DNA of 64,000 nucleotides, taken from a virus. The stretch is taken from IMG/VR virus record IMGVR_UViG_3300020050_010026, positions 3,980-67,979 of that record; one strand, written 5' to 3'. This document shows positions 21,411 to 62,596 of this stretch, piece after piece. Numbering within the stretch: position 1 is the first letter of the stretch; each line of letters starts with the position of its first letter. The notes beneath the pieces were generated by a model. The model was not told where the DNA came from. It did no database searches and saw only the letters and a list, made by a program, of their open reading frames with translations. The position numbers were made by a program, and so were the translations under genes.

Positions 21411-22115
21411 TTCCATTTTCATTATTAATTCTTTATATTTCTCACACTTTTCTTCAAATTTAATTCTATCGTCAATAACTTTAAGTACATTATCAAATTT
21501 ACCTTCAGTTTCATTTTGAACTAAATTCCACATTTGTTGTGCAACTTCTCTAATTTCTAACTGAGCATGTTCACTATTTCTCAATTTAATGAAATTAGCA
21601 AAACTTCTCATATTAAAAGTTACATCAGCTTGAATTTGTGAATTATATGTTTTAAAAAATCTAGCACTTTCTTTAGCTCTTTTACGACCTAAAATAGGCG
21701 TTAACTGTTCTAGAGCTTTGTGATATAGCATATTACTTGTTTTAGTAAAATCAATAAGTATATCATCCCATTTAGTATATACATCTTCTCCAGTCTCTGT
21801 TACAACATTCCAATCTTCAGGAATATAATATTTATCTTCTTTTAATTCTTTATATCTAGCTGATTCACCATTAATATTAGACATTCTATGCTTTAATAAA
21901 TGAATATGACTAGCTATGTCAGTATCTACTAAAAAATGTACCGTAACCTTCTCAAAAGGTGTTTCGTGATGATTAGACCAAAGCATTTCTAATAAATTAG
22001 GAATTCTTTCTCTTTTAGCTTCTGTAATATCTCTTGAAGTACTTGTCCAAGCTGATTGTGCTATAACTTCATCACTTCCATAAAATCCTAATAATTCTAC
22101 TGTATTTTTATTCAT
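21408..22115 (-). CDS. thyX: Flavin-dependent thymidylate synthase ThyX
   Basis: ThyX signature KHRMSNINGESARY (RHR-x7-S-x-R motif), plus the N-terminal TPFEKVTVHFLV…HLLKHR segment typical of ThyX. Confidence 0.7.
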   Translation of the reverse strand: MNKNTVELLGFYGSDEVIAQSAWTSTSRDITEAKRERIPNLLEMLWSNHHETPFEKVTVHFLVDTDIASHIHLLKHRMSNINGESARYKELKEDKYYIPEDWNVVTETGEDVYTKWDDILIDFTKTSNMLYHKALEQLTPILGRKRAKESARFFKTYNSQIQADVTFNMRSFANFIKLRNSEHAQLEIREVAQQMWNLVQNETEGKFDNVLKVIDDRIKFEEKCEKYKELIMKME

Positions 22116-22794
22116 ATATTAATATATTTCCATTACTACTTAATTTACCAAATTTACCATCAGTAACAACACTTCCATTACTAAATATTGTAGGATAATC
22201 TGATAATTTTAAAGTTCCTGCATTAATAATATCTTCACAATTATGAATATGTCCAAATAATGAATATTTAGGTTTAATTCTATTTAAAATATGATCCCTA
22301 AGGCTTTTACAGCCACAATATTCTAAGTTACCTTCTCTACTATAACTTAAATCTAATATTCCTTTAGGAGGTCCGTGTGTAACTAATATATCTATATTTT
22401 CAGGTATTTGTTTCCAATATTCATCCATTTTATGTCTAGCTTTCATAAAATACCAGTTTCCAAAAGATGGAGTTATTGGACTACCATAAATATTAATTCC
22501 TTCAATTTCAACAAATTCATCTTCTAAATATATAATATTCATTGCATTACAAAATTCTCTTAATTCAAATGTTACATTAGCAGCATAAGCATCATGATTT
22601 CCTGCAATTAATATTTTATATTTTATTGGTAAATTTGCGTACCATTGTAAAAAATCTTTAGCTTCAAGTCCATTTTTAAAAATATCATAATAATTACTAA
22701 AATCACCTGAATGAATAACAATATCAATATTTTCTGGAATAGTTAATAATCTATGATAACTGTGAGTATCACTAATGTGCCAAATCTTTTTCAT
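22108..22794 (-). CDS. Calcineurin-like metallophosphoesterase
   Basis: Motifs HISDTH, IHSGDF, AGNHD, VTHGPP and GHIHN. These are the canonical MPP metal-ligand blocks (D-x-H / GD / GNH[DE] / H / GH-x-H). Confidence 0.75.
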   Translation of the reverse strand: MKKIWHISDTHSYHRLLTIPENIDIVIHSGDFSNYYDIFKNGLEAKDFLQWYANLPIKYKILIAGNHDAYAANVTFELREFCNAMNIIYLEDEFVEIEGINIYGSPITPSFGNWYFMKARHKMDEYWKQIPENIDILVTHGPPKGILDLSYSREGNLEYCGCKSLRDHILNRIKPKYSLFGHIHNCEDIINAGTLKLSDYPTIFSNGSVVTDGKFGKLSSNGNILIYE

Positions 22795-23379: not shown

Positions 23380-23769
23380 TTATTTAAACACTTTAATTAT
23401 ATTTTGTGTACCTACAGGATTCATACTATGTACAAACATAATAGGTAAATCTAAATTATTATGATTATAAAAGTTTTTAACAAATTTAGCACAATCAAGA
23501 CCTGTTGCTTCTTTAAAAGAATCATAATGTTTATTATATTTTTCTTCTCCAGAATACATGTCTTGAGTATAGTGTTCATCTGCAAGATCATGATCATAAG
23601 AAATATGCGTAATATCATTATAATTATTAGTTATAACTTCTATAAAATCATTGTAATTTTTTACTATAGTCCATTCTTCTAAATAAATAGGATTAAGTGG
23701 ACCAATTCTTTTATACATATAATTTACACAATCTTTTGGTATTCTAACATCATCTAAAAATACTTTCAT
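23380..23769 (-). CDS. hypothetical protein
   Basis: ORF in a compact same-strand array; no recognisable motif. Confidence 0.4.
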   Translation of the reverse strand: MKVFLDDVRIPKDCVNYMYKRIGPLNPIYLEEWTIVKNYNDFIEVITNNYNDITHISYDHDLADEHYTQDMYSGEEKYNKHYDSFKEATGLDCAKFVKNFYNHNNLDLPIMFVHSMNPVGTQNIIKVFK

Positions 23770-24074: not shown

Positions 24075-24476
24075 TTAAAAATGCTTTTTTCCTAATCTAC
24101 AATATCCGTTATTTTTTAAATTTAATTTATGATTTTCAGATTTTAATTTCCCTTTAGACGCAATTGACATTTTCAATTTAGTTTCTTCTGATAATTTACC
24201 TGATTTACTATTATATGTTGTTAATCTACAATTTAATCCTTTTAAAACATTGTAATAATCTTGCCAATATCGCTCTCTTTCATTAAGTAAATTAATATCA
24301 CATTCTTCTAATATTTCAAATTTATGATTTTTTTCAAACATTAAACTATCATATAATTTTGTTTGAAATTTGCAATTTTGTAATTTTTTATATTGTTTAA
24401 ATCTTTTTTCAATATCAATACTTTGACCAATATATATTTTATCAGAAGGTGATGTTATCTTATAAATTCCTATCAT
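24075..24476 (-). CDS. GIY-YIG homing endonuclease with NUMOD3 motif (freestanding)
   Basis: N-terminal GIYKITSPSDKIYIGQS…R…Y…E (GIY-YIG). C-terminal SEETKLKMSIASKGK (NUMOD3-like). Confidence 0.65.
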   Translation of the reverse strand: MIGIYKITSPSDKIYIGQSIDIEKRFKQYKKLQNCKFQTKLYDSLMFEKNHKFEILEECDINLLNERERYWQDYYNVLKGLNCRLTTYNSKSGKLSEETKLKMSIASKGKLKSENHKLNLKNNGYCRLGKKHF

Positions 24477-30570: not shown

Positions 30571-31044
30571 TTAAAATATTTTCACATAAACTCCTGGATT
30601 TTCTTTATCTATATTATACCACTTATGTTTTCTAAAATTATCTTTATCTGGTAAAATTCCATCAATAGTCATTACTGATGGAAAAATATATTTTACATTA
30701 TCATCAGGAATTATATCATGTGCGGTAAGTAAATCAAATAAAATTTCTGTAGCATTTCCAAAATCAAAAGAATGTTTTGTATTTCTTACAAAATGAAATC
30801 CAATTAAAACAGGAAAATCTTTATTTTCCAACATTTTTTCAAACTGATTTCTAAATAATTCAAATTGATTTGGTTTATTTACATAACCTTTTACTATTTT
30901 TTTACTTGATGAGTAACTTTGTATTCCTAATAAATTAAGATATTTTTTAACTGTTTTAGAACTAAAAACACCCCTAGATGTTTTAATTTTGCTATTTTTT
31001 AATGAAGGGGTGTTAAAAGGTATAAAAATTAAATCATTTATCAT
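30571..31044 (-). CDS. hypothetical protein
   Basis: ORF in a compact array. Confidence 0.4.
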   Translation of the reverse strand: MINDLIFIPFNTPSLKNSKIKTSRGVFSSKTVKKYLNLLGIQSYSSSKKIVKGYVNKPNQFELFRNQFEKMLENKDFPVLIGFHFVRNTKHSFDFGNATEILFDLLTAHDIIPDDNVKYIFPSVMTIDGILPDKDNFRKHKWYNIDKENPGVYVKIF

Positions 31045-31065: not shown

Positions 31066-32979
31066 TCATTCTAAACTTAAATATTCATCTGCTATAAAAT
31101 TTGACAATAGTTCTTGATGATTATAATGTAATAAATCTTGTCCTTCGCCTATTTTTATTACATTATTTTCTATAAAATTTGTTGTATTTAAAGAAATCAT
31201 TGGATTGATAAAAGGATCATTAATAGCCATAGGTTTTTTTTGTTCTTTTCTACTAAGTGGTCTATTTAAAGTTTTTTTTGAACTTGTTTGTGTTTTAGAT
31301 ATACTAGATATTCCAAAATCATTATGAGTTTTCCCAAAAGAACTATAAAAATGAAAATCATCTAAAAATTTTGGATCAATTGTATTAAATTGAGGTCGTT
31401 TTATTAAAATTTCCTCATCTAATTTAATATTATTTTCATTATTGTTTAATGATATTTTTTTATTAAAATTAAAATCTATTTTTTCAAAAATTTGAATTGA
31501 TTTTTCATCAAAAATAATATTACCATTTCTAGTTAATTCTTCAACTTTATGTTTTCTAAAACGAACATAATCAATTAAATAACTAAATATTTTACTCAAA
31601 GTATTTGATATATTAAATTCGTTTGAAATAAAAAACTTTATAAGATTTGTTAATGTTGATTTATCACCATAGGCTATATTTATTTTCTTAAAAAAACAAG
31701 GATCTTTTAATATATCATCTTGATGTTTTTGAGTAAATTTAATTAATATAGTATTTAATATTAAAAACATCAGTATTTTATAACTATCGAATGTTGGTGT
31801 ATGAATTCTAAATTCAATAGTTTGTTTATTTCCAAAAATTAATGGTATAAAATTATGTAAAAAATATCGAGTTTTAATATTCCATTTTTGATTACTATTT
31901 GTATCAAAAGGATGGCTTTCTACATTTCTTAGATCTTCACCATAATCTGCAAATTTTTTAGAATTAGATGTTAAAAATTTAAATAAAACATCAAAGTTTT
32001 TATTTATATTAGATTTATCTATTATCGGATCTAATTCATTAAATATTTCGAATATATTATATGGTTTACTATAATTTTTATTTTTAATACCCATATTATA
32101 TTTCTTATATAATGGAAATAATGAAAATATATCATCTTGTAACCATGAACTAGTTTTTAGAAAAGCTAATATAAATTCAGGAGTTCTTGGAATATTTCCA
32201 ATATGTAAATGTAAAGAACATGAATTATCATATATTGTTCTATATTCTAATTCTTCACAAATATCAATTACTGTTTGAACACCTTTTTTACCAGATAATG
32301 GAACTGTAACATATTCTAATCCTGAAATACTACCATCTCTTAATGGGATTAACCCTAATCTTTTAGTTACACGTTCTGGTACAAAACCTGCAATCGTTTC
32401 AAACTCTAATCCAAAAGTTAATGGTTCTATAAAATTACCAACACTTTCAACCTCATAATTTATTTTAGAATCATATAGATGATTGTACATATCTAAATGT
32501 TTATCAGTAATACCTTTTGAGTCATAGGGTAAACTTGTTTTATAATTAGATTGTGGTGGTAAAATTTTATTAAAATCGGTTGCTTTTAATAATGAAATAT
32601 GAAGATAATCACCTGTTATTAACCTTTCTCTATAATTTTTATTCTTTTTAAGAACTTCTTCATTAATAGCAAAAGTTTTAGTTCCATCCTCAAGTGTTAC
32701 TGGTATTTTATTTTCTTCATTTCTATTAAAATAACGTAAATTATTATTTTCAACTAATCCTAAGATTATTGCGTTTGAATACAATTGGTATTTTTTTTCA
32801 GAATAATTAAATATTACTTGACCGGTTTCATATCTATAAAATTTATCGTTAATTTTATAACAATCTCCTGAATTTTCAACATTAACATCACCTATTTTAT
32901 AATAACCATTTGTAAATTTTTTAGCTTTAGAAATAGGTAATTCTTCTCCATTTATTGTTGTTATATATTTTTTTGACAT
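31066..32979 (-). CDS. Amidoligase-like protein (glutamine-synthetase fold, COG2170/Amidoligase_2-like), putative
   Basis: FGLEFETIAGF (GS-like G-x-E-x-E metal site, compare GS 'GPEPEFF'). RDGSISGLEYVT. CSLHLHIGN (H-x-H metal ligands, compare GS 'MHCHMS'). The same motif set recurs in the 268-aa paralog at 34981-35787. Confidence 0.4.
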   Translation of the reverse strand: MSKKYITTINGEELPISKAKKFTNGYYKIGDVNVENSGDCYKINDKFYRYETGQVIFNYSEKKYQLYSNAIILGLVENNNLRYFNRNEENKIPVTLEDGTKTFAINEEVLKKNKNYRERLITGDYLHISLLKATDFNKILPPQSNYKTSLPYDSKGITDKHLDMYNHLYDSKINYEVESVGNFIEPLTFGLEFETIAGFVPERVTKRLGLIPLRDGSISGLEYVTVPLSGKKGVQTVIDICEELEYRTIYDNSCSLHLHIGNIPRTPEFILAFLKTSSWLQDDIFSLFPLYKKYNMGIKNKNYSKPYNIFEIFNELDPIIDKSNINKNFDVLFKFLTSNSKKFADYGEDLRNVESHPFDTNSNQKWNIKTRYFLHNFIPLIFGNKQTIEFRIHTPTFDSYKILMFLILNTILIKFTQKHQDDILKDPCFFKKINIAYGDKSTLTNLIKFFISNEFNISNTLSKIFSYLIDYVRFRKHKVEELTRNGNIIFDEKSIQIFEKIDFNFNKKISLNNNENNIKLDEEILIKRPQFNTIDPKFLDDFHFYSSFGKTHNDFGISSISKTQTSSKKTLNRPLSRKEQKKPMAINDPFINPMISLNTTNFIENNVIKIGEGQDLLHYNHQELLSNFIADEYLSLE

Positions 32980-32987
32980 TTTATATT

Positions 32988-34952
32988 TTAATTTATAAAT
33001 TCTTTCATATTTTGCATAGTATTGTCTATAAAGGAAATAACCTTTACTGCAAGATTATTTTCTGAATATTTTAAAACTTTATTTCGTATTTGTTGAAAAT
33101 CTTTTATAGGTTCTGTGAAATCTTCATCACAAATATCTCTAATAATTTGTTCAACTTCTTCTTCTTGAGCAATCATTTCTTCTAGTAATAATTCATCATT
33201 TTGTTCTAAAATTTCTAAATTATCATTTACTTTGAAAAGTACATTCTCAAAATCAGAGATTTTATTTTCCATTGATAATTTTATAGGTTCTTCTTCTATT
33301 TTGTAATAATCTTCTTTCATATTTGAAAAATAAAGACTAGTCTTTGTATCAATTAAATTACCATGTTTAATATTATATATTTTTTCAGCACCAAGTACAG
33401 TTGTTGTACCTGAATAACTAATTCCATTTTTTACAATATTTTGTTGATTAATGTCTTTTAATTTGAAATTAAGATTTATTACAGGATGTACTGCCACATG
33501 AGATAATTCAATATAATCTATAAAACTACCAGGTTTAATCATAGAAAATTTATGATAAAAATGAGTATAATCCATAGAAGTTCTTATTTGAACACCTTCT
33601 ACAAAATAAAAAAATGAAGGATTTATACATTCTGAAGATTGAAATGGAATTTTACCTTTAACATTAATATCTTCAGAAATAAATGATTCACCATCAAATA
33701 CTTTGTCAACAATATAATAAAATCTTTCAGTTGCATCTTTTATAGTAGTCCCTATATTATAGAAACCATATTGATTTATCCATACATAAATACCAGTTAA
33801 TAAATGACCATTTCTAAACCATCTTAATTTATTAAAATACGGTATTGATCTATAATCATTTATATGTTTTAAAGGTTTTTCCTCATATATATTTATAAAT
33901 CCATTATCTTTGTTTACTTCTTTCAAAGCGGGAAGATTTATTAAACTTCTTACTTCTTCTTCCTCTTTTTTCTTTTTTGTATTAGTGTGAGAAGTTTCAT
34001 TATGATTTTGATAGTCAAATTCTTCAGAAAAAGATTCATAAGTATTAAAATAATAATTGTTTTGTTTACTATAACTTAAATTTTGAGTAGCATTACTTCT
34101 TGATATATGAATTAATTCTGCATTTTTAAAATCACCATCTGTAATTTTATAAACTACATTAGATTCAATATCAATGATATTATTATCATTACCTCCAATT
34201 GTTCGTAATGATTCCTCTAATGAGGAATAATACATTGAATTTTTATTTTCAATATATACAAATAATGGTCTTTCAGTTGTTTCATGAGTACTTACAGCCC
34301 AATCTTTTGATTTACCTTTAAATAAATATAAAACATTTGGAGATGTTGTATCTGTAAAAGCTAATGCAGCTCCTCCAATATAATCATTTAAAACTTTAAA
34401 ATTTTTATGTTTATATATTATTTCTAATAATATTTCAGAATCTATTTTATCTCTATTTACAACAACTTCTGTATCTAACTTATCGTAAAAGGTATTTTTA
34501 GCTGTTTTTTCAATATCATATTTTTTAGCAAGTTCAATATGATTTTTTAAAGTTCCATTATGTGTTCCTATAAATATAAAATCACCATTATTATCACCAA
34601 ATCCAAAAGGATGAGCATTATATACATTTACAGAACCAACACTAGATTGTCTTGTATGACCGATCACTATAGGAAATCTTTTTGGTTTTATATCTTTATC
34701 TACAATAAAATCAGTATATAGTTTATTACTATCAATTCCAATTTGAATATCTCCGTCATAGGAAATACCACAAGAACTTTTACCTCTTTCTATATTATAT
34801 ATACCTAATTTATCAAATTTATCTTTATTAAAAGATTTTGGAGTTTTTCCAGCAAATCCAAACAATCCACAATTTAATGTATTATGTTTAGGTTTGAAGA
34901 TATATAATCCAATATAATGTATTATCAATAATATCAATATTATTTGTATCAT
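32988..34952 (-). CDS. Class-II glutamine amidotransferase (Ntn hydrolase) domain fused to an unknown about 400-aa C-terminal domain; about 27-aa hydrophobic leader precedes the nucleophile Cys
   Basis: …TLN-CGLFGF (nucleophile Cys after a leader, as in PurF propeptides). GHTRQSSVGSVNVYNAHPF (GH-x-R…N-x-HP). GTHNGTLKN (HNG-x-I-x-N block of AsnB/GFAT/PurF). Confidence 0.55.
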   Translation of the reverse strand: MIQIILILLIIHYIGLYIFKPKHNTLNCGLFGFAGKTPKSFNKDKFDKLGIYNIERGKSSCGISYDGDIQIGIDSNKLYTDFIVDKDIKPKRFPIVIGHTRQSSVGSVNVYNAHPFGFGDNNGDFIFIGTHNGTLKNHIELAKKYDIEKTAKNTFYDKLDTEVVVNRDKIDSEILLEIIYKHKNFKVLNDYIGGAALAFTDTTSPNVLYLFKGKSKDWAVSTHETTERPLFVYIENKNSMYYSSLEESLRTIGGNDNNIIDIESNVVYKITDGDFKNAELIHISRSNATQNLSYSKQNNYYFNTYESFSEEFDYQNHNETSHTNTKKKKEEEEVRSLINLPALKEVNKDNGFINIYEEKPLKHINDYRSIPYFNKLRWFRNGHLLTGIYVWINQYGFYNIGTTIKDATERFYYIVDKVFDGESFISEDINVKGKIPFQSSECINPSFFYFVEGVQIRTSMDYTHFYHKFSMIKPGSFIDYIELSHVAVHPVINLNFKLKDINQQNIVKNGISYSGTTTVLGAEKIYNIKHGNLIDTKTSLYFSNMKEDYYKIEEEPIKLSMENKISDFENVLFKVNDNLEILEQNDELLLEEMIAQEEEVEQIIRDICDEDFTEPIKDFQQIRNKVLKYSENNLAVKVISFIDNTMQNMKEFIN

Positions 34953-34980
34953 TTTTTATATTTTTTATAATTTATTAATA

Positions 34981-35787
34981 TTATGAAAATATCAATTTAA
35001 GTTGTTTTTCTTTTTCTATTTCTAGTAATAAAAATTCAGCTTCAATTCTATCATTTGAATCTATTACTTCTTGAACTTTTTTTGAAAATTTATCAATGAA
35101 TATAGAATCGTTATTATTTAATACCATTTCAACAGCATTAATTGTTTGATCAAAAACCCATTTTATTAATTCATCAGAATGAATCCAAAAATTAGATAAA
35201 GATCTACATTCTACTCCAAAACTTTTAATTCTGAAAGAACCTGCTTTACCATATAATTCTCTTCTTCTATTATCTGGATCTTTCAATAATGATGGAAGAG
35301 TTACAAAAATATCAAACATTTTAACAATTCTTTCGCTAATTTCAAAATCTGGATTTGGATAACCAATATGAACATGTCCTCCAACACATCTTAAATTTGT
35401 ATTTGAATTGGGTTTTGGATTTAAATCTTGTAAATATACATTAAAATCTGGTTCACAACCAAATGTTTTAGCTTGTTTTGTTTGTAAATATATTGGATTT
35501 ACATCATAAGAGGCTAAAACTGATAAAGCACAATTATTTGCTCCTGCTATTACTGATAAATGTTCTTTTACAAAATTTATATTTTCAATATATTCTTCAG
35601 ATGTTGAACATGCAGGTATGTTGAATTCAAATGCAATATTATCTGTTTGAATACAATGTCCTTTATCAGTAATTGGATGTGGTTCATTTTTAGTACCAGG
35701 TATCATTCCAACTGCAGATATTACTTCTCCATTTCTTTCTATAAATATTTCAGGGTCACTACCTAATTTTATATTATGTTTATTCAT
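34981..35787 (-). CDS. Amidoligase-like protein (small GS-fold paralog), putative
   Basis: GSDPEIFIE, GCEPDFNVY, GGHVHIGY, ECRS. Parallels the E-x-E / H-x-H / E-x-R pattern of GS-fold carboxylate-amine ligases and of ORF 31066-32979. Confidence 0.35.
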   Translation of the reverse strand: MNKHNIKLGSDPEIFIERNGEVISAVGMIPGTKNEPHPITDKGHCIQTDNIAFEFNIPACSTSEEYIENINFVKEHLSVIAGANNCALSVLASYDVNPIYLQTKQAKTFGCEPDFNVYLQDLNPKPNSNTNLRCVGGHVHIGYPNPDFEISERIVKMFDIFVTLPSLLKDPDNRRRELYGKAGSFRIKSFGVECRSLSNFWIHSDELIKWVFDQTINAVEMVLNNNDSIFIDKFSKKVQEVIDSNDRIEAEFLLLEIEKEKQLKLIFS

Positions 35788-35810
35788 GTTTTATCTATAT
35801 TGTAGTTTTT

Positions 35811-36632
35811 TTAAAAATTTTCATCATTTATTTCATCATAAATAGGTGGTAAATTTGTATTGTTTAAGTTATTATCGTTTAAAAATTTTTTTTCAATTAA
35901 ATAATAATCAATTAACCTTAAACATTCGTTTGAACCAATACTTCCAATACACCATTCAGGATGAGATTGAATACATAAACTATTTGTTATGTTATAATGT
36001 ATTATTTCTGGTTCTAAAAAATTTTTTGGTAATTCAATTTCATTATTCTCACCATTTAAGTAAGTATTACTTTGAAAATTTTTAGACCAACCAAGTAATT
36101 CATATTTAGATTTTTCTAAATTATAAGGAAACATCATTTGATGGTGATCTGAAGAAACTTGAATAGTTTTAGAACCTTCTATTGAATGTTTCTTCAATTC
36201 TATTATTTGTTCATTATTATTATGTCCAACCACATGTTGAATTAATTTACCACCATTATAAACAGTTAAAAATTGAGCACCTCTACATATTCCTAATTTT
36301 GGAATATTTCTTATAATAGAGTTAGGTATTTTACCATTAATTAATTTAAATTCTAACGCATCTCTTTGTGAATTTATATTAGTATATTTACCAACTGTTT
36401 CACCATAATATAAAGGGGAAACATCTTCTCCACCAGTAAAAACCATTAAATCAATTGATTTTACAATATCAACTGTTTTTTGATTAACATTAAGTATTAA
36501 TTCTTCAGGAATATTAATTATATTAATATTATAAGATTGTTTTAAAAAATTAACTATTGATTTGTCAACCATATTTGCACTAAAATATACATTTATGTTT
36601 TTTTTCATTTTAAATTGTTTTAGATTTTTCAA
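35811..36632 (-). CDS. Class-I glutamine amidotransferase, peptidase C26 / gamma-glutamyl hydrolase (PuuD-like)
   Basis: LMVFTGGEDV, nucleophile elbow LGICRGAQFL, HVVGH, catalytic QSHPE. Confidence 0.6.
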   Translation of the reverse strand: MKNLKQFKMKKNINVYFSANMVDKSIVNFLKQSYNINIINIPEELILNVNQKTVDIVKSIDLMVFTGGEDVSPLYYGETVGKYTNINSQRDALEFKLINGKIPNSIIRNIPKLGICRGAQFLTVYNGGKLIQHVVGHNNNEQIIELKKHSIEGSKTIQVSSDHHQMMFPYNLEKSKYELLGWSKNFQSNTYLNGENNEIELPKNFLEPEIIHYNITNSLCIQSHPEWCIGSIGSNECLRLIDYYLIEKKFLNDNNLNNTNLPPIYDEINDENF

Positions 36633-37527
36633 TTATTACTTTTCTAATTTCTTGAATATATTTTTTAGCACATACCGATAATTCATCTGTACCATTATCC
36701 ATTGAACTAGCAGAATTACATTCTAATAGAATATAATCTTGATAATCTCTGTATTCACCATCTTTATTAGTAGGTGTTTGAACTTTTACATCAAAAGATA
36801 ATATATCAGCTCCAATTGAATTTAATGCCGATACACAATCATCAATTATATCTTCCCATGAATTAGGTTTATTGAAATTTTCATTTTCTTCTAAAAACCA
36901 TACACATATATCGTCATGTCTTCTCCATTTTTGATCTTCTGGTACATCTGCTTTTAATGCTTTTCTACAAGCATAAAAACAACCTTGTTTTGTAACATGT
37001 AATCTAAATTCATAACCATAATTTATAAATTTTTCATAAATATAATTAGAAGGACTATGTGTTTTTAACCATTCATCTAATTCTTGAGCAGTTTTTATTA
37101 ATGTATTGCCTTTTCCTTTAGAACCATAATGCGCTTTTGCTACAATTGGAAACTTTTCAGAAGCCCAGCCTCTTAAAGATTCTAAATTAGAAAAAGTTGT
37201 CCAAATAGCTGTTTTTACATGAGCTTCTTCAAACTTTTGTTTCATTAATAATTTACTTGCTGAATTTTTAATACTTTGAATAGTATTTATTTCAATTCTT
37301 TTACCACCATTTGCGACTGTATCTTCAATTTCCGTTGTTGATCCAAATCTAACAACAGATTTAAAAGGTAATAAGTCTATATTTTTATATTTAGCTCTTA
37401 AACAATTATGACTAGGGTGTCTAGATAATATCATTGGTCTAAAAGTACTAATTTTTTTTGATTTTTTATTACCAATAACACCTCTACTGGTAAATAGATT
37501 AGATTGATTTTTTAAATTAGTTGTCAT
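36610..37527 (-). CDS. ATP-grasp ligase (RimK/glutathione-synthetase-like)
   Basis: FPIVAKAHYGSKGKGNTLI (P-x-V-x-K…GS-x-G-x-G). YIYEKFINYGYEFRLHV. C-terminal ILLECNSASS (E-x-N Mg site). Confidence 0.55.
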   Translation of the reverse strand: MTTNLKNQSNLFTSRGVIGNKKSKKISTFRPMILSRHPSHNCLRAKYKNIDLLPFKSVVRFGSTTEIEDTVANGGKRIEINTIQSIKNSASKLLMKQKFEEAHVKTAIWTTFSNLESLRGWASEKFPIVAKAHYGSKGKGNTLIKTAQELDEWLKTHSPSNYIYEKFINYGYEFRLHVTKQGCFYACRKALKADVPEDQKWRRHDDICVWFLEENENFNKPNSWEDIIDDCVSALNSIGADILSFDVKVQTPTNKDGEYRDYQDYILLECNSASSMDNGTDELSVCAKKYIQEIRKVIIEKSKTI

Positions 37528-38179
37528 ATTTTAATAATTTTCTTATAATTTTAGATGAGATTGGATCGTATATTTCTTCTGGATGATATTGTACTCCATA
37601 TATATTTTCTGAAAACTTAGCTATTTCAACATTTCCAAAATCTTTATCATTTGCAATAACTTCTATTTGAGATCCATTATTATTTATATCAAAATAACCT
37701 TGATGATGTAAAGAATTTACTTGGTATTTATTTTTTTTCAATAAATCTGTTGGGAAAACATTAAATGCAATATCTGTAAATTCTAAAGTATCTACTAACT
37801 CCATTCTATTTTTATTAGAATAATTGAAACCATAATTTTGAATAAGTTCTCCTCCAAATTTTACACATAATTGTTGAAATCCTAGACATATTCCAAATAT
37901 AGGTATTCCTGATTCAATATATTGATCAAGATTATTGTCATAAAAATATTGTTTCATTATGTCAGGATTGGATGTATAAAATCCAGGTACTTGATTCATT
38001 GATTGAGGTGCTATATCTAATCCACCTGGTAATATTAATAAATCAATAGATTTGTCAATTCCTTTTTGAGGTGATAATATTTGAACGATTCCAAAATTAC
38101 TTAACCATTCTATATAAGGTTTTGTAACACCAAAACTATTTTCACCTGTATTCCAACCTACTATTCCTATTTTTTTCAT
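37517..38179 (-). CDS. Class-I glutamine amidotransferase, peptidase C26 / gamma-glutamyl hydrolase (second copy)
   Basis: LLILPGGLD, GICLGFQQL, HHQG, QYHPE. Confidence 0.65.
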   Translation of the reverse strand: MKKIGIVGWNTGENSFGVTKPYIEWLSNFGIVQILSPQKGIDKSIDLLILPGGLDIAPQSMNQVPGFYTSNPDIMKQYFYDNNLDQYIESGIPIFGICLGFQQLCVKFGGELIQNYGFNYSNKNRMELVDTLEFTDIAFNVFPTDLLKKNKYQVNSLHHQGYFDINNNGSQIEVIANDKDFGNVEIAKFSENIYGVQYHPEEIYDPISSKIIRKLLKYDN

Positions 38180-38196
38180 TTTATTTATTTATTGTT

Positions 38197-38619
38197 TTAA
38201 TTTTTTAAATTTATTGTATAATTTATATAATCGTAATAATCATAATCGTCAATCATATTTTCATTTTTAATATGAGAATGTACATCCATATAAATATATG
38301 CTTTACCATAAGGAGTATCTATTAAAATCTTTTCACTTAAATTATTTTTATAATCTTCATAATAATATGTTTTTAATAGATTTATTTTTTCAAGTGTTTT
38401 TCTATCAATTTGATATACTTCAAATACAACAGATTTACTACCTTTTTTTATACCGACTTTACAAGCAATGTCTGGTAATTTTATTAATTGGTATTCCGGA
38501 TAAGATAAAAAATCTCCTAATTTTTTAGAAGTATCTAATAAGGAATGATTAGGTAAACCTTCTCGAAGTTCACAAAATACAGCAATTAAAATAGTTTTTT
38601 TTTCTGAAATTTTAATCAT
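38197..38619 (-). CDS. Gamma-glutamyl cyclotransferase-like (GGCT/AIG2 family) protein
   Basis: Architecture and motif spacing match the paralog at 47516-47911 (YGSLRKG…LGDF…Y…L…V…GEVYEVD…L…EGY…YG). Here the motifs read IAVFCELREG…LGDFLSYP…VFEVYQID…YGKAYIY. Confidence 0.4.
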   Translation of the reverse strand: MIKISEKKTILIAVFCELREGLPNHSLLDTSKKLGDFLSYPEYQLIKLPDIACKVGIKKGSKSVVFEVYQIDRKTLEKINLLKTYYYEDYKNNLSEKILIDTPYGKAYIYMDVHSHIKNENMIDDYDYYDYINYTINLKN

Positions 38620-38620
38620 T

Positions 38621-39634
38621 TTAAAAAAGTAATAATTGTGAAGTTATTAATTGTTTTGCTTCTATTAAGCCATATTTTTTAACAAAATCTGAAAAATCTT
38701 TACATTCATATTCATCTTTTATTATTATATTATAAACATCGAACGATTCTTTAAATTTTTGAGCAAAAATTTGACCCCAGTTATTTTCTTTATCAAAATC
38801 ATTATCGTAAAATATATAAATATCTTCAAATCTATTGATTAATTCTTGAAAAACTTGTTTTTTAGGTAATAAATTTTCACATTGTAAAGCAATTGATGGT
38901 ATTCCTGTTATTTCATGAATAGCCATTACATCTTTTAATGATTTAGTAATTATGAGAGTATCTCCTTTTTCAGGTAATTGTGACCAACCTTGCCATATAC
39001 TATTATTATGACTATTTATCCATTTATATATTTTATTAAAAGGTTGGTATATTTTATAAGTTTCTAAATCGTCTTTAAATTCTTTGAAACAATAAGCATG
39101 TTTATCAGCGGTAATTATTTTATCATTTATAAAAAAATAAGAAATTGGTTCAACGTTAAAAATTTCTAATGTTTTTAATGAAATTCCATATTGTTGCCAA
39201 TATAATAAATCATAAGATTTCCATTCTCTTTTTGTTTTTTTAATATTTAAAGTACCAGCTTTATGTAAAAATTCATCTCTATTGATAGGTATAATATCAT
39301 TTGTTTTAGATTTTTCAATTTTCTTAACAATAAAATCATCTTCCATTCCAAAATCTATTGCTATTTTTGATAATGCTTCAAAATAATTTAAATTAAATTT
39401 CATTTGAACAAATTTAATACAATCTCCACCACCTAATTTAAAATCTTTAAAACATATTTCATTATTTTCACCTTTAAAAAATCCAAAAGAAGCCGTATTT
39501 TCATTTCTAAGTGGTGATAACATTACTTTTCCTGGAATAATTTCTTCATTAATATATTTTTGATATATTTCAATATCTGTTATATATCTTAACAATTTAT
39601 TTTTTGTAACTAATTGTTTATTTAAATTAATCAT
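38621..39634 (-). CDS. DnaG-like primase (degenerate zinc-binding region + TOPRIM-like DxD), putative
   Basis: SPLRNENTASFGF…FKDFKLGGGDCIKFVQ resembles the DnaG CHC2 zinc-ribbon region with ligands substituted. IYIFYDNDFDKENNWG is a TOPRIM-like DxD; the conserved TOPRIM Glu is not obvious. Confidence 0.35.
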   Translation of the reverse strand: MINLNKQLVTKNKLLRYITDIEIYQKYINEEIIPGKVMLSPLRNENTASFGFFKGENNEICFKDFKLGGGDCIKFVQMKFNLNYFEALSKIAIDFGMEDDFIVKKIEKSKTNDIIPINRDEFLHKAGTLNIKKTKREWKSYDLLYWQQYGISLKTLEIFNVEPISYFFINDKIITADKHAYCFKEFKDDLETYKIYQPFNKIYKWINSHNNSIWQGWSQLPEKGDTLIITKSLKDVMAIHEITGIPSIALQCENLLPKKQVFQELINRFEDIYIFYDNDFDKENNWGQIFAQKFKESFDVYNIIIKDEYECKDFSDFVKKYGLIEAKQLITSQLLLF

Positions 39635-39826: not shown

Positions 39827-40357
39827 TTAAATATTTATTACAGATAAATAAACTCTATTTTGTGTTCTTTTATTTATAACATTATGTATATCTTTCCAAC
39901 CATTTGTTTTTAATAATTTGCGTTGATTTATATTCTGTTCAATATCTGTACATAAAACAGCTGAATAACCCAATAATCTACCTAAATCTTGTCGTAATTG
40001 ATTTAAAATTGTACCAATTCTTTTATTTCTAAAATTTTCTTCAACTTTAACATTACACGATACCATAAAAGCACAACAATGTGGTAATTGATATAATTTA
40101 AAAGTTGATATTATATCATCATTAAATACAATTTTATAATTTCCTAAAGACCAGTCTGTTTGTATTATTAAAAAATCATCATAATTAAAAGTAATATTTT
40201 GTTCTTCACAATATAATCTTGCTTCTTCTTCAGATTTACTATGCTTTAATTCACCTATAATTTCATTATCTTTAATAAAATTAATTTCTTCTGGTTTACA
40301 ATTTAATATTCCAGATATTATTTTTCTATATTTATCTAATATTTGTAACGTTTTCAT
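39827..40357 (-). CDS. GNAT-fold acetyltransferase-like protein (paralog A)
   Basis: FRNKRIGTILNQL…GYSAVLCTDIEQNINQRKLLKTNGWKDIHN is a motif-A-like R-x-x-G-x-(G/A) block. Clear paralog of 58851-59303 (…LCTDVSDNIAEVKTLDKNGWKHIYN…). Confidence 0.4.
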   Translation of the reverse strand: MKTLQILDKYRKIISGILNCKPEEINFIKDNEIIGELKHSKSEEEARLYCEEQNITFNYDDFLIIQTDWSLGNYKIVFNDDIISTFKLYQLPHCCAFMVSCNVKVEENFRNKRIGTILNQLRQDLGRLLGYSAVLCTDIEQNINQRKLLKTNGWKDIHNVINKRTQNRVYLSVINI

Positions 40358-42383: not shown

Positions 42384-43366
42384 AATATGTTATCTCATAG
42401 GCTCTTTATCCTATGATTCTATATGTTACCATATAGTTCAGACTATATCTTCAGTACCGTGTACTGCTGGGATTTCGTGGATATATTATATTCTGTAATA
42501 AATGTGAGAGCCTCACACTTTTGATTGTTTTACTCGACACATACTTTTCGTATTGGTTTATATCAGCCAAACGCCTGCATCAGGTTCTACTCTCACATTA
42601 TTACAGTTTCAATATCTAGTCGTTCGACCTTCTATAATCATTTAAATTATAGCTTGGTACGGGATTGTCCTATTAGGATATTCCCCGTTTAACCCAGTTA
42701 CGTGACACATTTATTTTGGAAGTTTATATAACATTGTAGGATGTATATGTTCAATAACTAATTCTTTAAATGTATTATAAAATTTAGCAGGAAGATAAAT
42801 TTTATTATCTGACATTATATTAAAACGAATTTTAAATTTATCAAATAAAAAGTCTATAAAATCTTCAAGTTCTATTTTATTAAAACAATTTGTAGAAATC
42901 ATTATTGAATGAGATGTTTTATAACCATCATCCATAAACATTACAGCTAAAGATAATTCATTAAAATAGGAATATATCCCTTTAGATATAACCTTTTTTT
43001 TATCTTTATAAAACATGTGATACAACTGTAATAATTCTTTTTTATTACAAGTTTCTAAAGTAGCAGACGTATAAAACTTACCATTTCTTTTATCTGGTGT
43101 TTTTCTTGTCCATATTTTAAATTTTGGAGATAATGATTGAATCATTTCTTTTTTCCATTCACAATATTCTGCTTGTTTTGGACCATGATCACATTTAAAT
43201 CTTGGGTTTATACATGCTTTATCAATTCTTAAATGACCATCTCCTAAGACGCATCCTATTAAAAATTGAATTTCTTTTTTAGGTAAATTCATATTTTATA
43301 TATTTTAAAATACAAAGATACAAAAAATATTCCACATTTCCTAATGTTTTTTAACTTTTTTTGCCT
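42384..43366 (-). mobile_element. Group I self-splicing intron (983 nt) carrying a LAGLIDADG homing-endonuclease ORF
   Basis: Minus-strand core elements: P4/P5-like ACGGGGAAT…AATCCCG; P7 5' GGTCGAACGACTAG; P7 3' GAAGATATAGTCTGAAC (the conserved 'AAGAUAUAGUC' S element). Exon 1 ends in U (…CAACGTGAT|). Omega-G at 42384. Joining restores …ETQRD-ANVVVGLF…, co-linear with DnaB. Confidence 0.75.
42711..43292 (-). CDS. LAGLIDADG homing endonuclease (double-motif, intron-encoded)
   Basis: Two LAGLIDADG motifs: LIGCVLGDGHL and LAVMFMDDGYK. Located inside the group I intron. Confidence 0.8.
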   Translation of the reverse strand: MNLPKKEIQFLIGCVLGDGHLRIDKACINPRFKCDHGPKQAEYCEWKKEMIQSLSPKFKIWTRKTPDKRNGKFYTSATLETCNKKELLQLYHMFYKDKKKVISKGIYSYFNELSLAVMFMDDGYKTSHSIMISTNCFNKIELEDFIDFLFDKFKIRFNIMSDNKIYLPAKFYNTFKELVIEHIHPTMLYKLPK

Positions 43367-47515: not shown

Positions 47516-47911
47516 TTAATTCATTGTTGGTGTGAAATATCCTTGTTTAAAAGCTATCCAATCACCAGATTCTACAATTCTTTCTTTTGGTATATCATTT
47601 ACATAAATATACACACTTGCTTCACCATAAGGTGTTTCAATAGGTATTTTATCATAAAATGTATTATTACCACCAGGAGTATATCCTTCAAGTCGATCTA
47701 CTCTTTCAGCAGTTTTTTCATCTACTTCATATACTTCCATTGTTACAGATGTATTACCATCTTTTTTTAATCCAGGATAAAAACCTAAATCATAAAGACT
47801 AAATTCTGGATTAGTTTGAAAATCTCCTAAATAATTAGAGGTTGATAATAAATGATCATTACCCATCCCTTTCCTGAGGCTACCATACACCGATATTAAT
47901 ATTTTTTTCAT
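47516..47911 (-). CDS. Gamma-glutamyl cyclotransferase-like (GGCT/AIG2 family) protein, second copy
   Basis: YGSLRKGMGNDHLL…LGDF…YDLGFYPGL…VTMEVYEVDEKTAERVDRLEGY…YGEASVYIY is a classic AIG2/GGCT YGSL…EVY…D…EG layout. Confidence 0.55.
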   Translation of the reverse strand: MKKILISVYGSLRKGMGNDHLLSTSNYLGDFQTNPEFSLYDLGFYPGLKKDGNTSVTMEVYEVDEKTAERVDRLEGYTPGGNNTFYDKIPIETPYGEASVYIYVNDIPKERIVESGDWIAFKQGYFTPTMN

Positions 47912-58850: not shown

Positions 58851-59303
58851 TTAATTTAATTCTTTTATTGAAATGTTAATTTTATTACTTGTTCTTGGAT
58901 TTCTAAAATTGTAAATATGTTTCCAACCGTTTTTATCTAAAGTTTTAACTTCAGCTATATTGTCAGAAACATCTGTACATAATAATATTCCATATCCTAA
59001 TTCTTTAGCAATATCTATTCTAAAATTATTTAAAATAGTATTTACACCTTTATTTTTATAATTATTAGAAACAAAAACTCCTGTGCTAACACAAATACCA
59101 CAACAACCAATCATTTGTACTAATGTAAAATTAGATATTATTATTTTAGTATTTGTTACAGTAAATTTTAAACCGTTAGGATTATTTTTAACATAAATTA
59201 AAAGATTATATGTTAATTCTACCCATTTATTATCTAAAAAGATTTTTATTTCTACATCAGTTTTTAATAAATCTTTTAATTGTCCTATATATTTATCTAT
59301 CAT
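58851..59303 (-). CDS. GNAT-fold acetyltransferase-like protein (paralog B of 39827-40357)
   Basis: …GCCGICVSTGVFVSNNYKNKGVNTILNNF…GYGILLCTDVSDNIAEVKTLDKNGWKHIYNFRNPRTSNK; co-linear with paralog A. Confidence 0.4.
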   Translation of the reverse strand: MIDKYIGQLKDLLKTDVEIKIFLDNKWVELTYNLLIYVKNNPNGLKFTVTNTKIIISNFTLVQMIGCCGICVSTGVFVSNNYKNKGVNTILNNFRIDIAKELGYGILLCTDVSDNIAEVKTLDKNGWKHIYNFRNPRTSNKINISIKELN

Positions 59304-59638: not shown

Positions 59639-59664
59639 AATGTTGTTAATTTTAATTAGTTAGT

Positions 59665-59913
59665 TTACCATTCTGTATTTGGATCATTACATGGTCTACC
59701 ATTAATGAATAATTCTGTACTAATAGAAGTATTTTTTATTAAAATACTATCAATTGATTGTGGTATATCAGATGTTTCTTCTAAATCATCTTCTGTAATA
59801 GTTCTTGTTGCTTTTTTAATTAATTTATCTTCAGCATATTTTAATCCGTAATAACACGTTTTCAAAATATCAAGTTTTTGTTTTGATAATTTTGTTAAAT
59901 CTAAATTTTTCAT
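59665..59913 (-). CDS. hypothetical protein
   Basis: ORF in a compact array. Confidence 0.3.
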   Translation of the reverse strand: MKNLDLTKLSKQKLDILKTCYYGLKYAEDKLIKKATRTITEDDLEETSDIPQSIDSILIKNTSISTELFINGRPCNDPNTEW

Positions 59914-60577
59914 AATGTTGTTAGTTTTAGTTTGTTATTGATATAATAAAAGAAATAGGTATTGTTTTTTCAAACTTTTTATCATCAAAAATAACATTTA
60001 CAGTATTAGTTTTATTGCAAAATGATATTTTATCTATTTTTGATATTATACCAGAATTATTCCATTCATCTTTATATTTTAATATCATAATTAGTTAAGT
60101 TTTAAACAGTTATTTAAATCAATAGTATTCCAAATATGTACATAAGTAAATTCACCATTTGGAAACCATAGTCTAAGATATTGAGGATTGCTCATAATTA
60201 AAATATTAAAAATAATGTTTCAATTATTACAATACAAATTAAAAATCTAATAGACATGTTAGCATTTTGTAATTGTATTTCTAATGGTAATTTTTTGTAT
60301 TCTGAATTTTTCATAATAGTTAATTGTTAGTTAATAATTTTTTAATGTTCAATAATAAAAAATAAGGGTCTAGATGTAAAAGACGGATTCAATATCTCTA
60401 ACATTTACGAAGACCCTTATTTTCGTTCTATTTAAGTGAGTGGCGTACTGCTCACAAATTTCTATTATATCATATAGACGGAGTGACTACGGGTTAATTT
60501 GTAAACAAATCGTTCCGACTGATGACCGTAACTGATAATATAATTTCATTCTCTGCCATTTTAGAGATTAAATATAG

Positions 60578-60650
60578 GGTGATAGGTGAGGGTCGAACTC
60601 ACATTTTTCTGAACCACAATCAGAGGCTTTACCCTTAAGCTACAATCACC
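60578..60650 (-). tRNA. tRNA-His (anticodon GTG) with 5' G-1
   Basis: Minus strand: g-GTGATTG-TA-GCTT-AAGGGTA-AAGC-C-TCTGA-TTGTGGT-TCAGA-AAAAT-GTGAG-TTCGACC-CTCAC-CTATCAC-C. All four stems pair. Anticodon loop is U-U-GUG-G-U. Extra 5' G opposite the C73 discriminator (His identity). Confidence 0.8.
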
Positions 60651-60680
60651 ATGTAAAAATATAAAAGAATTATATTTTTG

Positions 60681-60752
60681 TATTTCCAGAGAGAATTGAA
60701 CTCTCGTTTTTAGGTTGAAAACCTAATGTCCTAACCACTAGACGATGGGAAC
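60681..60752 (-). tRNA. tRNA-Glu (anticodon TTC)
   Basis: Minus strand: GTTCCCA-TC-GTCT-AGTGGTTAGG-ACAT-TTAGG-TTTTCAA-CCTAA-AAAC-GAGAG-TTCAATT-CTCTC-TGGAAAT-A. Resembles the bacterial tRNA-Glu D-arm (TCGTCTAGTGGTTAGGAC). One acceptor mismatch. Confidence 0.7.
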
Positions 60753-60811
60753 GGTTTCTGTATGCTTTACGTAAAGCTATGGTAGTACAGACACTATTAT
60801 TCCATTATTCT

Positions 60812-60938
60812 GTGGAGGTGCCGGCATCGAAACCGGGTCCATAAACAATTTCAATACAATAATATATTACAGCTTAGTTATAGATTTACGTGTTTAACTA
60901 CACATAGGTCAACTGATTAATCAGAATGACTCCACCAC
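60812..60938 (-). other. tRNA-like / hairpin-rich element (about 125 nt) of uncertain nature
   Basis: 3' part CCGG-TTTCGAT-GCCGG-CACCTCC-A resembles a T-arm plus acceptor. The 5' part GGAGTC…CTGATTAATCAG… forms a long imperfect palindrome. No canonical cloverleaf found. Confidence 0.25.
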
Positions 60939-61956
60939 TTCATTTAATCTAATGAAGAAATCTTAAAACAACTTAAAATTAAGCAGCAATTAATTCTTGT
61001 TTCCAAGAAAAATCACCACATATCACATCATTATTTAAAATGTTGTGAACTACTTCCATATTTGCTCTAACTTGAGCGTTTGTATTCTTGTCATTTATTA
61101 ATTCACCTTAGTTTACAGTTATCTCTCTGGCTGATTATTATATTTACTACTATCTATGTCAAATCCTGTCACCCCCTTAAAATAATCTCATTTTGATAGA
61201 ATGTGATTAGTATAACTATTTTCAATATCTTTATATAAATGATGTCACGAGAAACGTGCTTCTCTTACCCTATAGCGTACTAGGAGCATTTATAAAGGTA
61301 TTAAATGTTTAACCTATTTGAGAGTTTTATCATTGCAACTCACAAGTGTTTTCTTTTCTTCAGAAACCAATAGCACCCATTTAACATTGGGTACACCATG
61401 TTTTTATAAAATCACTTGTCCAAATTCTAGTGGAATGGTTACTATGTTGACGTACTTACAACACATGAACATCTTTACAATAAACACAACTGCTAGTACA
61501 GTTTATAATTTGGTGTGCGTACCTAATTCTCCACCTTCATTATTATTTATCTTCAAGCAAGTGATTATATTAAAAACATTGAAAAATACTAGGATTACTC
61601 CTTGGGTTTGCAATGGGTCGAACCCATACTACACACCTCAATCTTCTGTCAATTCAGAAGTAGTATCTTTTTATAAATTATACACCCTATGCGTGCATCA
61701 CATCTTTTTAGCACTTAATGTAGGTAAAATCTTATTATACATTATTCTTATGATTTATAAAATTCAATGTTTAACTTTTAATTTAATTTTGTTTATTACA
61801 ATCTTTACAATTTAAAAATTCTTTTTCATTTCCATGAATGATTTTATTAGTATTACAAAACCATTTCTTTTCATACGGAATAAATATTTCTTTAAAATCT
61901 TTATATTTATACAAACATACAAAAAACAATATCACGCAACTAAAAGGAACAAAACA

Positions 61957-62229: not shown

Positions 62230-62336
62230 CTTTGGAATGTATGAATTCCGAACTTCCGGAATACAAGCTTTTCTCGATTATTGCTTGAACAAAAAAAATC
62301 GAATTTCACTTAACTTTTAATTTTATAGGCAATCAA

Positions 62337-62534: not shown

Positions 62535-62535
62535 A

Positions 62536-62568
62536 TACTAAGGGGGTGCAAGCCCCCTTTTTTTTTTC
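62536..62568 (+). terminator. Rho-independent terminator after the coat gene
   Basis: aagggggtgcaagccccctt hairpin followed by a T10 run. Confidence 0.8.
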
Positions 62569-62596
62569 TTATCAAAAAAAATTAAAGGTGATAAGC

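Follow-up and report, generated by a model that had tools for sequence, protein, structure and literature searches.

The DNA analyzed here, a 64,000-nucleotide stretch of the IMG/VR virus record IMGVR_UViG_3300020050_010026 (positions 3,980 to 67,979; hereafter, the window), carries an array of seven genes encoding three ligases, three amidohydrolases, and a protein of the γ-glutamyl cyclotransferase (GGCT) fold. This array is the crAss-like-phage version of the known and widespread phiEco32/LUZ24/RIO-1-type amide-ligase cassette. It rather probably encodes early-expressed cytoplasmic enzymes that make or edit amide bonds of the γ-glutamyl type on a substrate other than DNA. The window is a Crassvirales genome, and its nearest cultured relative is Cellulophaga phage phi14:2 (Steigviridae), as judged from the orthology of its virion RNA polymerase (RNAP) with that of phi14:2 and from the gene content of its minus-strand module.

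Gene content and active sites of the cassette

The seven open reading frames (ORFs) lie head to tail on the minus strand, overlapping or separated by no more than 28 nt, between genes for a DNA primase and a RusA-like resolvase (Table 1); the coordinates given in the first-pass annotation of this DNA matched these ORFs exactly. No terminator-like site was found inside the array, and a promoter scan was uninformative in the AT-rich DNA of the window (95 sites vs 102.7 expected). An amidohydrolase gene was followed by a ligase gene three times (C26b and ATP-grasp ligase, C26a and COOH-NH2 ligase, and GATase-II and Amidoligase_2), both in the window and in three related contigs (L004-L006). The domains originally assigned to the seven products were borne out by Pfam, PHROGs, and motifs, with GGCT1 scoring below threshold and supported by paralogy. 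None of the cassette proteins reached an NCBIfam equivalog cut-off.

The COOH-NH2 ligase matched PF14395 with 35 bits (cut-off 25) and phrog_3815 (6e-74), and its active-site residues D11, E13, E54, H138, H140, E193, and R195 were invariant in an alignment of seven sequences. The Amidoligase_2 protein matched PF12224 with 25.2 bits (cut-off 22) and phrog_2443, annotated 'amidoligase' (5e-34). Its conserved, all-β N-terminal domain (NTD; residues 1-175) precedes a catalytic core (residues ~176-430) holding the motifs GLEFET at 190, LHLHIG at 256, and IEFRIH at 388, and a non-conserved, low-complexity C-terminal tail. The E-x-E and H-x-H motifs that had been noted in both glutamine synthetase (GS)-fold ligases are present. 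The ATP-grasp ligase, 46% identical to phi14:2 g038, matched Pfam ATP-grasp with 27.7 bits (cut-off 27) and phrog_2599 (1.9e-20), with weak NCBIfam matches to purK and rimK_fam. No match to Gln-synt_C was found among the cassette ligases in Pfam.

Alignment to PDB entries 3fij and 7d4r showed an intact Cys-His-Glu triad in both C26 proteins, in agreement with the initial assignment. The catalytic residues of C26a are Cys116 (GICRGAQ) and His224-Pro-Glu226 (SHPEW), and this protein scored 72.8 bits for Peptidase_C26 vs 29.4 bits for GATase in Pfam; its TTG start as called is uncertain, and an in-frame Met lies eight codons downstream. Its best NCBIfam matches, γ-glutamyl-CDP-amidate hydrolase (1.5e-7) and PuuD (1.8e-6), were both far below their cut-offs. 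C26b, with the triad Cys98-His199-Glu201 (GICLGFQ, YHPEE), scored 81.6 bits for Peptidase_C26 and 64.3 bits for GATase and also matched the CobB/CobQ-type GATase_3. Its NCBIfam matches, none near a cut-off, ranked GuaA/TrpG-type glutaminases (guaA_Nterm, 4.5e-12; trpG) above PuuD. The PuuD equivalog NF008471 gave 27.6 and 26.6 bits for the C26 proteins vs a cut-off of 266.

The remaining amidohydrolase combines an N-terminal nucleophile (Ntn) domain of the class-II glutamine amidotransferases with a C-terminal domain (CTD). The GATase_6 match in Pfam (31.8 bits) was confined to the N-terminal third of the protein, where the Ntn domain (residues ~28-300) starts with the catalytic Cys28 and is followed by a low-complexity linker. 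This Cys was invariant in 118 of 118 homologues, of which 61 carried a conserved hydrophobic leader before it and 57 started with 'MC'. In the window, the leader comprises residues 1-27 (MIQIILILLIIHYIGLYIFKPKHNTLN). Ntn amidotransferases require the catalytic Cys as residue 1, yet here it is residue 28; the leader would therefore have to be removed, or would anchor or inactivate the precursor. The leader is probably cleavable, and it would imply either autoproteolytic maturation or membrane tethering; action at the membrane would fit with it but is not proven by it. We know of no description of a conserved leader ahead of the catalytic Cys of an Ntn GATase-II. A lipoprotein signal was considered for this leader and rejected, as the hydrophobic stretch ends eight polar residues ahead of the Cys and a lipobox is missing; moreover, in the homologues that start with 'MC', this Cys has the catalytic role.

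The CTD of the GATase-II protein (residues ~340-565) is followed by a poorly conserved acidic tail. Its structure was predicted with a pLDDT of 87 and a pTM of 0.83, showed no relative among solved structures, and, in a search of viral models, matched only the same protein in phi14:2 and in the gut crAss-like phage cr108_1, which thus carries the same fusion. Among 1.84 billion representative proteins, just 199 clusters contained the domain, and the GATase-II fusion architecture was shared by nearly all of the full-length ones. None of the known synthase partner domains looked for (the phosphoribosyltransferase of PurF, SIS of GlmS, PP-loop of AsnB, and GltB) was found fused to or partnered with GATase-II.

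Two GGCT paralogues are encoded in the window (41% identity, E 1.7e-24). GGCT1, within the cassette, scored 19.6 bits for Pfam GGACT, under the cut-off of 22.8, and matched phrog_2520 (3e-5). GGCT2, which had already been listed as a second GGCT, was confirmed by GGACT (70.1 bits), phrog_2520 (2e-26), and PDB 1xhs, E. coli YtfP (5e-20). In an alignment with 3JUB and YtfP, GGCT1 had FCEL in place of YGxL and a Lys at the position of E82 of human GGACT, which we take to be the catalytic residue; GGCT2 retained the YGSL motif and the Glu of LEG. Throughout the crAss-like clade examined (window and L004-L006), the primase-adjacent GGCT lacked YGxL and had Lys or Asn in place of the catalytic Glu, and an intact paralogue was found elsewhere in the window and in L006 (5344-5748). 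The catalytic Glu was kept by GGCT2 and by the GGCTs of phi14:2, Kuravirus SU10, and cyanophage Lbo-JY46. Given its conserved motifs, GGCT2 is likely the active cyclotransferase of the system.

Table 1. Positions of the cassette genes, their domains, and related features (window coordinates unless a contig is named)
Feature	Position	Strand	Description
DNA primase	38621-39634	−	Flank of the array
GGCT1	38197-38619	−	Degenerate GGACT/AIG2-fold paralogue; first gene after the primase
C26b	37517-38179	−	Class-I GATase/Peptidase_C26; 11-nt overlap with the start of the ATP-grasp gene
ATP-grasp carboxylate-amine ligase	36610-37527	−	RimK-like by PHROG name
C26a	35811-36632	−	Peptidase_C26; directly upstream of the COOH-NH2 ligase
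COOH-NH2 ligase type 2	34981-35787	−	γ-Glutamylcysteine synthetase (GCS)/GS-fold, phiEco32-like; signature gene of the cassette
GATase-II fusion	32988-34952	−	Class-II (Ntn) glutamine amidotransferase with a novel C-terminal domain
GATase-II leader	34872-34952	−	Hydrophobic
GATase-II Ntn domain	34053-34871		Contains catalytic Cys28
GATase-II CTD	33258-33935		
Amidoligase_2 (GS-fold) protein	31066-32979	−	All-β NTD and catalytic core
Amidoligase NTD	32455-32979		All-β
Amidoligase catalytic core	31690-32454		Contains the three motifs
RusA-like resolvase	30571-31044	−	Flank of the array
GGCT2	47516-47911	−	Intact YtfP-type γ-glutamyl(amine) cyclotransferase; ~9 kb from the cassette
GNAT-like ORFs	39827-40357; 58851-59303		Paralogues
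GGCT copies adjoining the primase	L004 6069-6464; L005 5802-6359; L006 4591-5331		YGxL and catalytic Glu lost

Relatives and distribution

The closest annotated counterpart is found in phi14:2 (NC_021806, g037-g041), whose cassette is annotated gene by gene in GenBank. In the same order as in the window, phi14:2 encodes primase, GGCT, ATP-grasp, COOH-NH2 ligase, 'aminotransferase' (GATase-II), amidoligase, RusA, exonuclease, pyrophosphatase, and ribonucleotide reductase (RNR), and its proteins have 34-46% identity to those of the window. The identity extends over the GATase-II leader region, the CTD, and the amidoligase NTD, and the virion RNAP is orthologous as well. Unlike the window, phi14:2 has no C26 genes, a single GGCT with the catalytic Glu, and a UDG gene after the amidoligase. 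The first-pass annotation had called the system undescribed for crAss-like phages; this is wrong, because phi14:2 holds the same annotated cassette in the same synteny, cr108_1 has the fusion, and the phiEco32/LUZ24/RIO-1-type gene set is in the literature (PMC5498523). The replicative module of phi14:2 belongs to the early class and is transcribed by the virion RNAP (bioRxiv 10.1101/2020.03.07.982082). By orthology with phi14:2, early expression is also predicted for the window cassette.

The phiEco32-type phage amidoligase cassette was reportedly predicted by Iyer, Abhiman, Burroughs & Aravind in 2009 (Mol Biosyst 5:1636); the link drawn earlier to their amidoligase analyses was right, as was the placement of the genes in a replication and nucleotide-metabolism module. 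Duhaime et al. (2017), citing Hardies et al. (2013), described a 'seven-gene peptidoglycan modification cassette' of RIO-1-like podoviruses, conserved amid replication genes in RIO-1, phiEco32, 7-11, PA11, tf, MR299-2, LUZ24, PaP3, and CW02 (PMC5498523), and the same gene set is listed for the LUZ24-like phage UFV-P2 (PMC3890496). Later papers credit Iyer et al. (2009) with the hypothesis that the cassette modifies the cell wall and thereby prevents superinfection (PMC10580990).

Comparative anatomy based on iterated profiles over 41 loci showed a near-universal triad of COOH-NH2 ligase, GATase-II, and Amidoligase_2, which recurs in ~30 loci. GATase-II almost always adjoined Amidoligase_2, and a C26 gene lay directly upstream of the COOH-NH2 ligase in most loci with both, this being the commonest adjacency in other phages. 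With the COOH-NH2 ligase accompanied by these genes in ~30 independent loci, the arrangement of the array is not due to chance. The complete seven-gene order, including both C26 genes, was present on the three ~100-kb crAss-like contigs L004-L006 (64%, 41%, and 37% identity), and homologues of the GATase-II fusion were found on many ~100-kb contigs. Lbo-JY46 had the full set of seven gene types, with a counterpart for each of the two C26 paralogues, and the core set was present in SU10. An HNH-like insert that resembles a homing endonuclease was observed within the cassette of L005 (9479-9994).

The COOH-NH2 ligase was found in 317 phage records, covering Bruynoghevirus/LUZ24-like, Kuravirus/phiEco32-like, Proteus, Aeromonas, and Vibrio phages. 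A cellular scan with one genome per bacterial or archaeal species yielded only 34 loci, nearly all of them on phage-sized contigs of metagenome-assembled genomes (MAGs); the signature ligase is thus essentially restricted to phages. Some of these MAG contigs, binned as bacterial (for instance, 'Allosphingosinicella sp.' and 'Candidatus Saccharibacteria'), were ~100-kb crAss-like contigs and others phage-sized, as exemplified by L008 (DASVUV010000089.1). They are probably binning artefacts, which could mislead host or taxon assignment.

With PF14395, a GATase-II/Amidoligase_2 adjacency clustered with this ligase, ATP-grasp and GGCT genes, and a setting among replication genes, the window has the features of the phiEco32-type cassette, which comprises PF14395, PF12224, a class-II GATase, ATP-grasp, AIG2/GGCT, and often C26/GATase-I in a tight cluster among early and replication genes. 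The window version differs in having two C26 genes, each ahead of a ligase, a degenerate GGCT inside the cassette with the intact paralogue 9 kb off, and no counterpart of a ~200-aa gene of the podovirus versions; conversely, the GATase-II CTD and the amidoligase NTD were not detectable in SU10. The ~200-aa family (SU10 gp087; L003 7817-8434) lies between the COOH-NH2 ligase and Amidoligase_2 and was observed in 15 further loci, such as L011 (5997-6602) and L020 (768-1421); it occurs in podovirus and MAG cassettes, is missing from the crAss-like versions, and is unrelated to the amidoligase NTD. A derivation of this NTD as a fused copy of the podovirus gene was rejected at an hhalign probability of 0.3%.

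Proposed function and alternative explanations

ATP-grasp and GCS/GS-fold ligases form amide bonds by way of acyl-phosphates, γ-glutamyl amides or glutamine are hydrolyzed by the thiol amidohydrolases of the C26 and Ntn types, and GGACT turns γ-glutamyl-amines into 5-oxoproline. In the mechanism that we propose, the ATP-grasp ligase, the COOH-NH2 ligase type 2, and Amidoligase_2 would each form one amide or isopeptide bond, driven by ATP through an acyl-phosphate. The acceptor would be peptide-like; it may belong to the cell wall (a peptidoglycan precursor or a recycled muropeptide), to a protein (its C-terminus or a side chain), or to the amine metabolites. The thiol amidohydrolase encoded ahead of each ligase (C26b, C26a, and the Ntn GATase-II) would trim or remove γ-glutamyl groups or deliver the amine, and GGCT2, as an intact GGACT, would release leftover γ-glutamyl-amines as 5-oxoproline. 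This proposal builds on the gene content, the intact active sites, the conserved co-occurrence and adjacency, and the phage-restricted distribution described above; its chemistry is taken from knowledge of the families, and the target may, following the published hypothesis, be a cell-wall peptide whose modification blocks superinfection.

Two known systems provide points of comparison. Butirosin BtrJ/BtrG and the γ-glutamyl cycle show that ligases and GGCT can serve one pathway: an ATP-grasp/GCS-type ligase adds the γ-glutamyl group, and a GGCT-fold cyclotransferase removes it as 5-oxoproline. The window differs from these in having no carrier protein, pyridoxal-phosphate (PLP) decarboxylase, or acyltransferase partners, and it shows no detectable sequence relationship to them beyond the fold families. 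The E. coli Puu pathway, to which the cassette had been likened in the first-pass annotation, also pairs a GS-fold ATP-dependent ligase with a Peptidase_C26 hydrolase for γ-glutamylation and its subsequent removal, and the closest relatives of the window C26 proteins in the PDB are structures of the PuuD/SpuA type. This general ligase and γ-glutamyl-hydrolase logic stands; the specific equivalence with PuuA and PuuD does not, as the ligases of the window are Amidoligase_2 and COOH-NH2_lig rather than Gln-synt_C, and neither C26 protein qualifies as the PuuD equivalog. In addition, no PuuB/PuuC oxidase or dehydrogenase was found, and the ATP-grasp ligase, Ntn-GATase, and GGCT have no Puu counterpart.

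Several observations weigh against the proposed mechanism. Its degenerate motifs suggest that GGCT1 is probably catalytically inactive or repurposed, a pseudo-enzyme kept in the cassette, and the catalytic Cys of GATase-II is not N-terminal unless the 27-residue leader comes off. A hydrolase role is not established for C26b, because this protein scores like an ordinary glutaminase as well as a γ-glutamyl hydrolase. The GATase-II CTD and the amidoligase NTD, both candidate target-recognition domains, have no known fold. A cassette-encoded carrier or tag peptide (Pup/LysW-like) was not found near the primase, where the small ORFs lacked conservation among relatives, and the literature searched contained no biochemical or genetic test of a cassette member.

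The main rival explanation, which we regard as unlikely, is that the cassette encodes three two-component glutamine-dependent amidotransferases, in which each glutaminase channels ammonia to the ligase encoded just downstream. Up to three carboxylates would then be amidated, and no γ-glutamyl peptide would be built or trimmed, following the models of GatD/MurT (iso-Glu to iso-Gln on lipid II), CobB/CobQ, and the small and large subunits of carbamoyl-phosphate synthetase. The threefold amidohydrolase-then-ligase order, the conservation of the C26/COOH-NH2-ligase and GATase-II/Amidoligase_2 adjacencies across unrelated phage backbones, and the nucleophilic Cys kept in all three amidohydrolases are consistent with this scheme, as are the true glutaminase subunits and GATase_3 among the matches of C26b. 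However, the cassettes of phi14:2, Kuravirus, and LUZ24-like phages have all three ligases and no C26 gene, which means that the pairing can be dispensed with; C26a resembles Peptidase_C26 far more than the glutaminase models, and a scheme of pure amidation leaves the GGACT genes without a role. To our knowledge, moreover, no GS- or GCS-fold ligase has a glutaminase partner. Weaker, and in our estimate quite improbable, is the scavenging of host metabolites by auxiliary metabolic genes, whereby γ-glutamyl compounds such as glutathione, γ-glutamyl-polyamines, muropeptides, or folyl-polyglutamates would be broken down and rebuilt; the glutamate, glutamine, or nitrogen thus released would supply nucleotide synthesis during replication, and no specific modification product would result. 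The families GGACT and C26 are catabolic and are placed by PHROGs in the category of auxiliary metabolic genes, the cassette lies in a nucleotide-metabolism module near RNR, dUTPase, and ThyX, and Duhaime et al. named the degradative members 'host material recycling genes' (PMC5498523). Three ATP-consuming ligases are nevertheless hard to fit into a purely catabolic scheme, the essentially phage-restricted signature ligase is not a copy of a host gene, and no cassette protein reached the NCBIfam equivalog cut-off for a housekeeping enzyme.

The cassette had originally been read as a system for post-replicative DNA base hypermodification, for example by attaching glutamyl- or polyamine-type adducts to thymine or cytosine, or for making a modified nucleotide. 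This reading is unsupported by our data, and we consider it very improbable. No 5-HMUDK, aGPT-Pplase, dUMP hydroxymethylase, TET/JBP, DpdA, or QueC-like gene was found when the window ORFs (≥90 aa, plus a single ORF of 60 aa) were scanned against PHROGs and/or Pfam; ~21 kb of the probable 85-kb source contig, which leaves room for such genes, lie outside the scanned window. A canonical ThyX (Thy1, 116.8 bits in Pfam), which makes ordinary dTMP, was the sole thymidylate-synthase-type gene seen. The accessory domains showed no DNA-binding or glycosylase-like fold, and phages with very different replication systems (crAss-like, Kuravirus, Bruynoghevirus, and a cyanophage) share the cassette. Virion DNA of the cassette-bearing phage tf was cut by the ordinary restriction enzymes RsaI, HpaI, EcoRV, SmaI, and HaeIII and was cloned (PMC3517423).

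Thymidine hypermodification clusters (5-HMUDK and aGPT-Pplase with or without PLP, radical-SAM, and amidoligase genes; Lee et al., 2018, 2021) resemble the cassette in being phage-encoded near nucleotide-metabolism genes and in sometimes including amidoligase and amidotransferase domains. Such Pfam domains occur beside thymidine-hypermodification genes in some metagenomic contigs (Lee et al., 2021; PMC8989533), and the published link always involves 5-HMUDK together with aGPT-Pplase (PMC8989533), the defining enzymes that were not found in the window, which has ThyX instead. Also in favor of the hypermodification reading, the best NCBIfam match of C26a, far below its cut-off, is a hydrolase acting on a nucleotide-linked γ-glutamyl compound, and the cassette is located in the replication module and is early. 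This location is accounted for by shared synteny and early expression, as in phi14:2 and in the podoviruses (PMC5498523). A pathway that needs neither 5-HMUDK nor aGPT-Pplase and attaches a glutamyl- or amine-type adduct to DNA or to a nucleotide precursor, with the GATase-II CTD and the amidoligase NTD recognizing the nucleic acid or nucleotide, appears just as improbable; if true, it would account for the constant association of the cassette with phage replication genes.

Genomic surroundings and implications

The window has ~24% G+C and three giant plus-strand ORFs of 2199, 2603, and 2254 aa (161-21354), none of which matched a PHROG and none of which contained an exact DFDxD motif. The middle one is the orthologue of the phi14:2 virion RNAP g066 (28% identity, 81% query coverage, E 8e-167 in tblastn). 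The minus-strand module encodes ThyX, metallophosphoesterase, helicase, RNR, dUTPase, exonuclease, RusA, primase, Sak4, and DNA polymerase, as identified with PHROGs and Pfam. Of the neighbors named in the first-pass annotation, ThyX, dUTPase, the phosphoesterase, and RNR were recovered, and the 'MazG-like' ORF gave a weak match only (16.5 bits, E 0.01). The two 'GNAT-like' ORFs are true paralogues, as had been stated (35% identity, E 5e-29), but they show traces of GNAT-like motifs only, and the GNAT assignment was below significance throughout: the Acetyltransf_1 matches (E 0.054 and 0.012) were below the cut-off, the best acetyltransferase in a PDB profile search had an E of 0.34, and PHROGs and NCBIfam gave no match. 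These ORFs were not conserved beside the cassette in relatives, with one homologue in 40 related loci (L025 17594-17938). No near-identical DNA was found in the phage collection searched.

Other features of the window were observed outside the cassette. The metallophosphoesterase is calcineurin-like (64.7 bits) and is encoded near a cREC_REC 'cyclic-phosphate processing receiver' protein (PF20274, 60.4 bits), at 22108-22794 and 23380-23769. The cREC_REC domain is tied to RNA-end repair in the jumbo-phage literature, and the pair may have a role in RNA repair or with cyclic nucleotides rather than in nucleotide metabolism. Two homing-endonuclease genes, of the GIY-YIG/HNH-type phrog_314 and the LAGLIDADG phrog_11023 families, are inserted in the replication module (24075-24476 and 42711-43292). 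In the right end (59640-64000), a gene-poor stretch with tRNA-His and tRNA-Glu (60577-60752) is followed by plus-strand ORFs that include one for a protein resembling single-stranded DNA-binding protein (61834-62229; phrog_1199, 5e-8), and the G+C fraction rises to 0.38 in the last 2 kb vs ~0.24 elsewhere.

The window adds no new kind of system; it presents lineage-specific elaborations of a known cassette. This cassette is among the most widespread phage enzyme sets without an experimentally established function, being carried by therapeutic Pseudomonas phages of the LUZ24/PaP3 group, E. coli Kuraviruses, marine podoviruses, and a cyanophage, to which our analysis adds a whole clade of ~100-kb environmental crAss-like phages. 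The window does offer sharper handles for tests of function, namely amidohydrolase and ligase genes conserved as pairs, a hydrophobic and probably cleavable leader on GATase-II, a pseudo-GGCT, and two accessory domains of orphan fold as candidates for recognizing the target. Since phi14:2 is culturable and RNA-seq data exist for it, this phage is a practical model for distinguishing whether the product of the cassette is a cell-wall, protein, small-molecule, or DNA modification.

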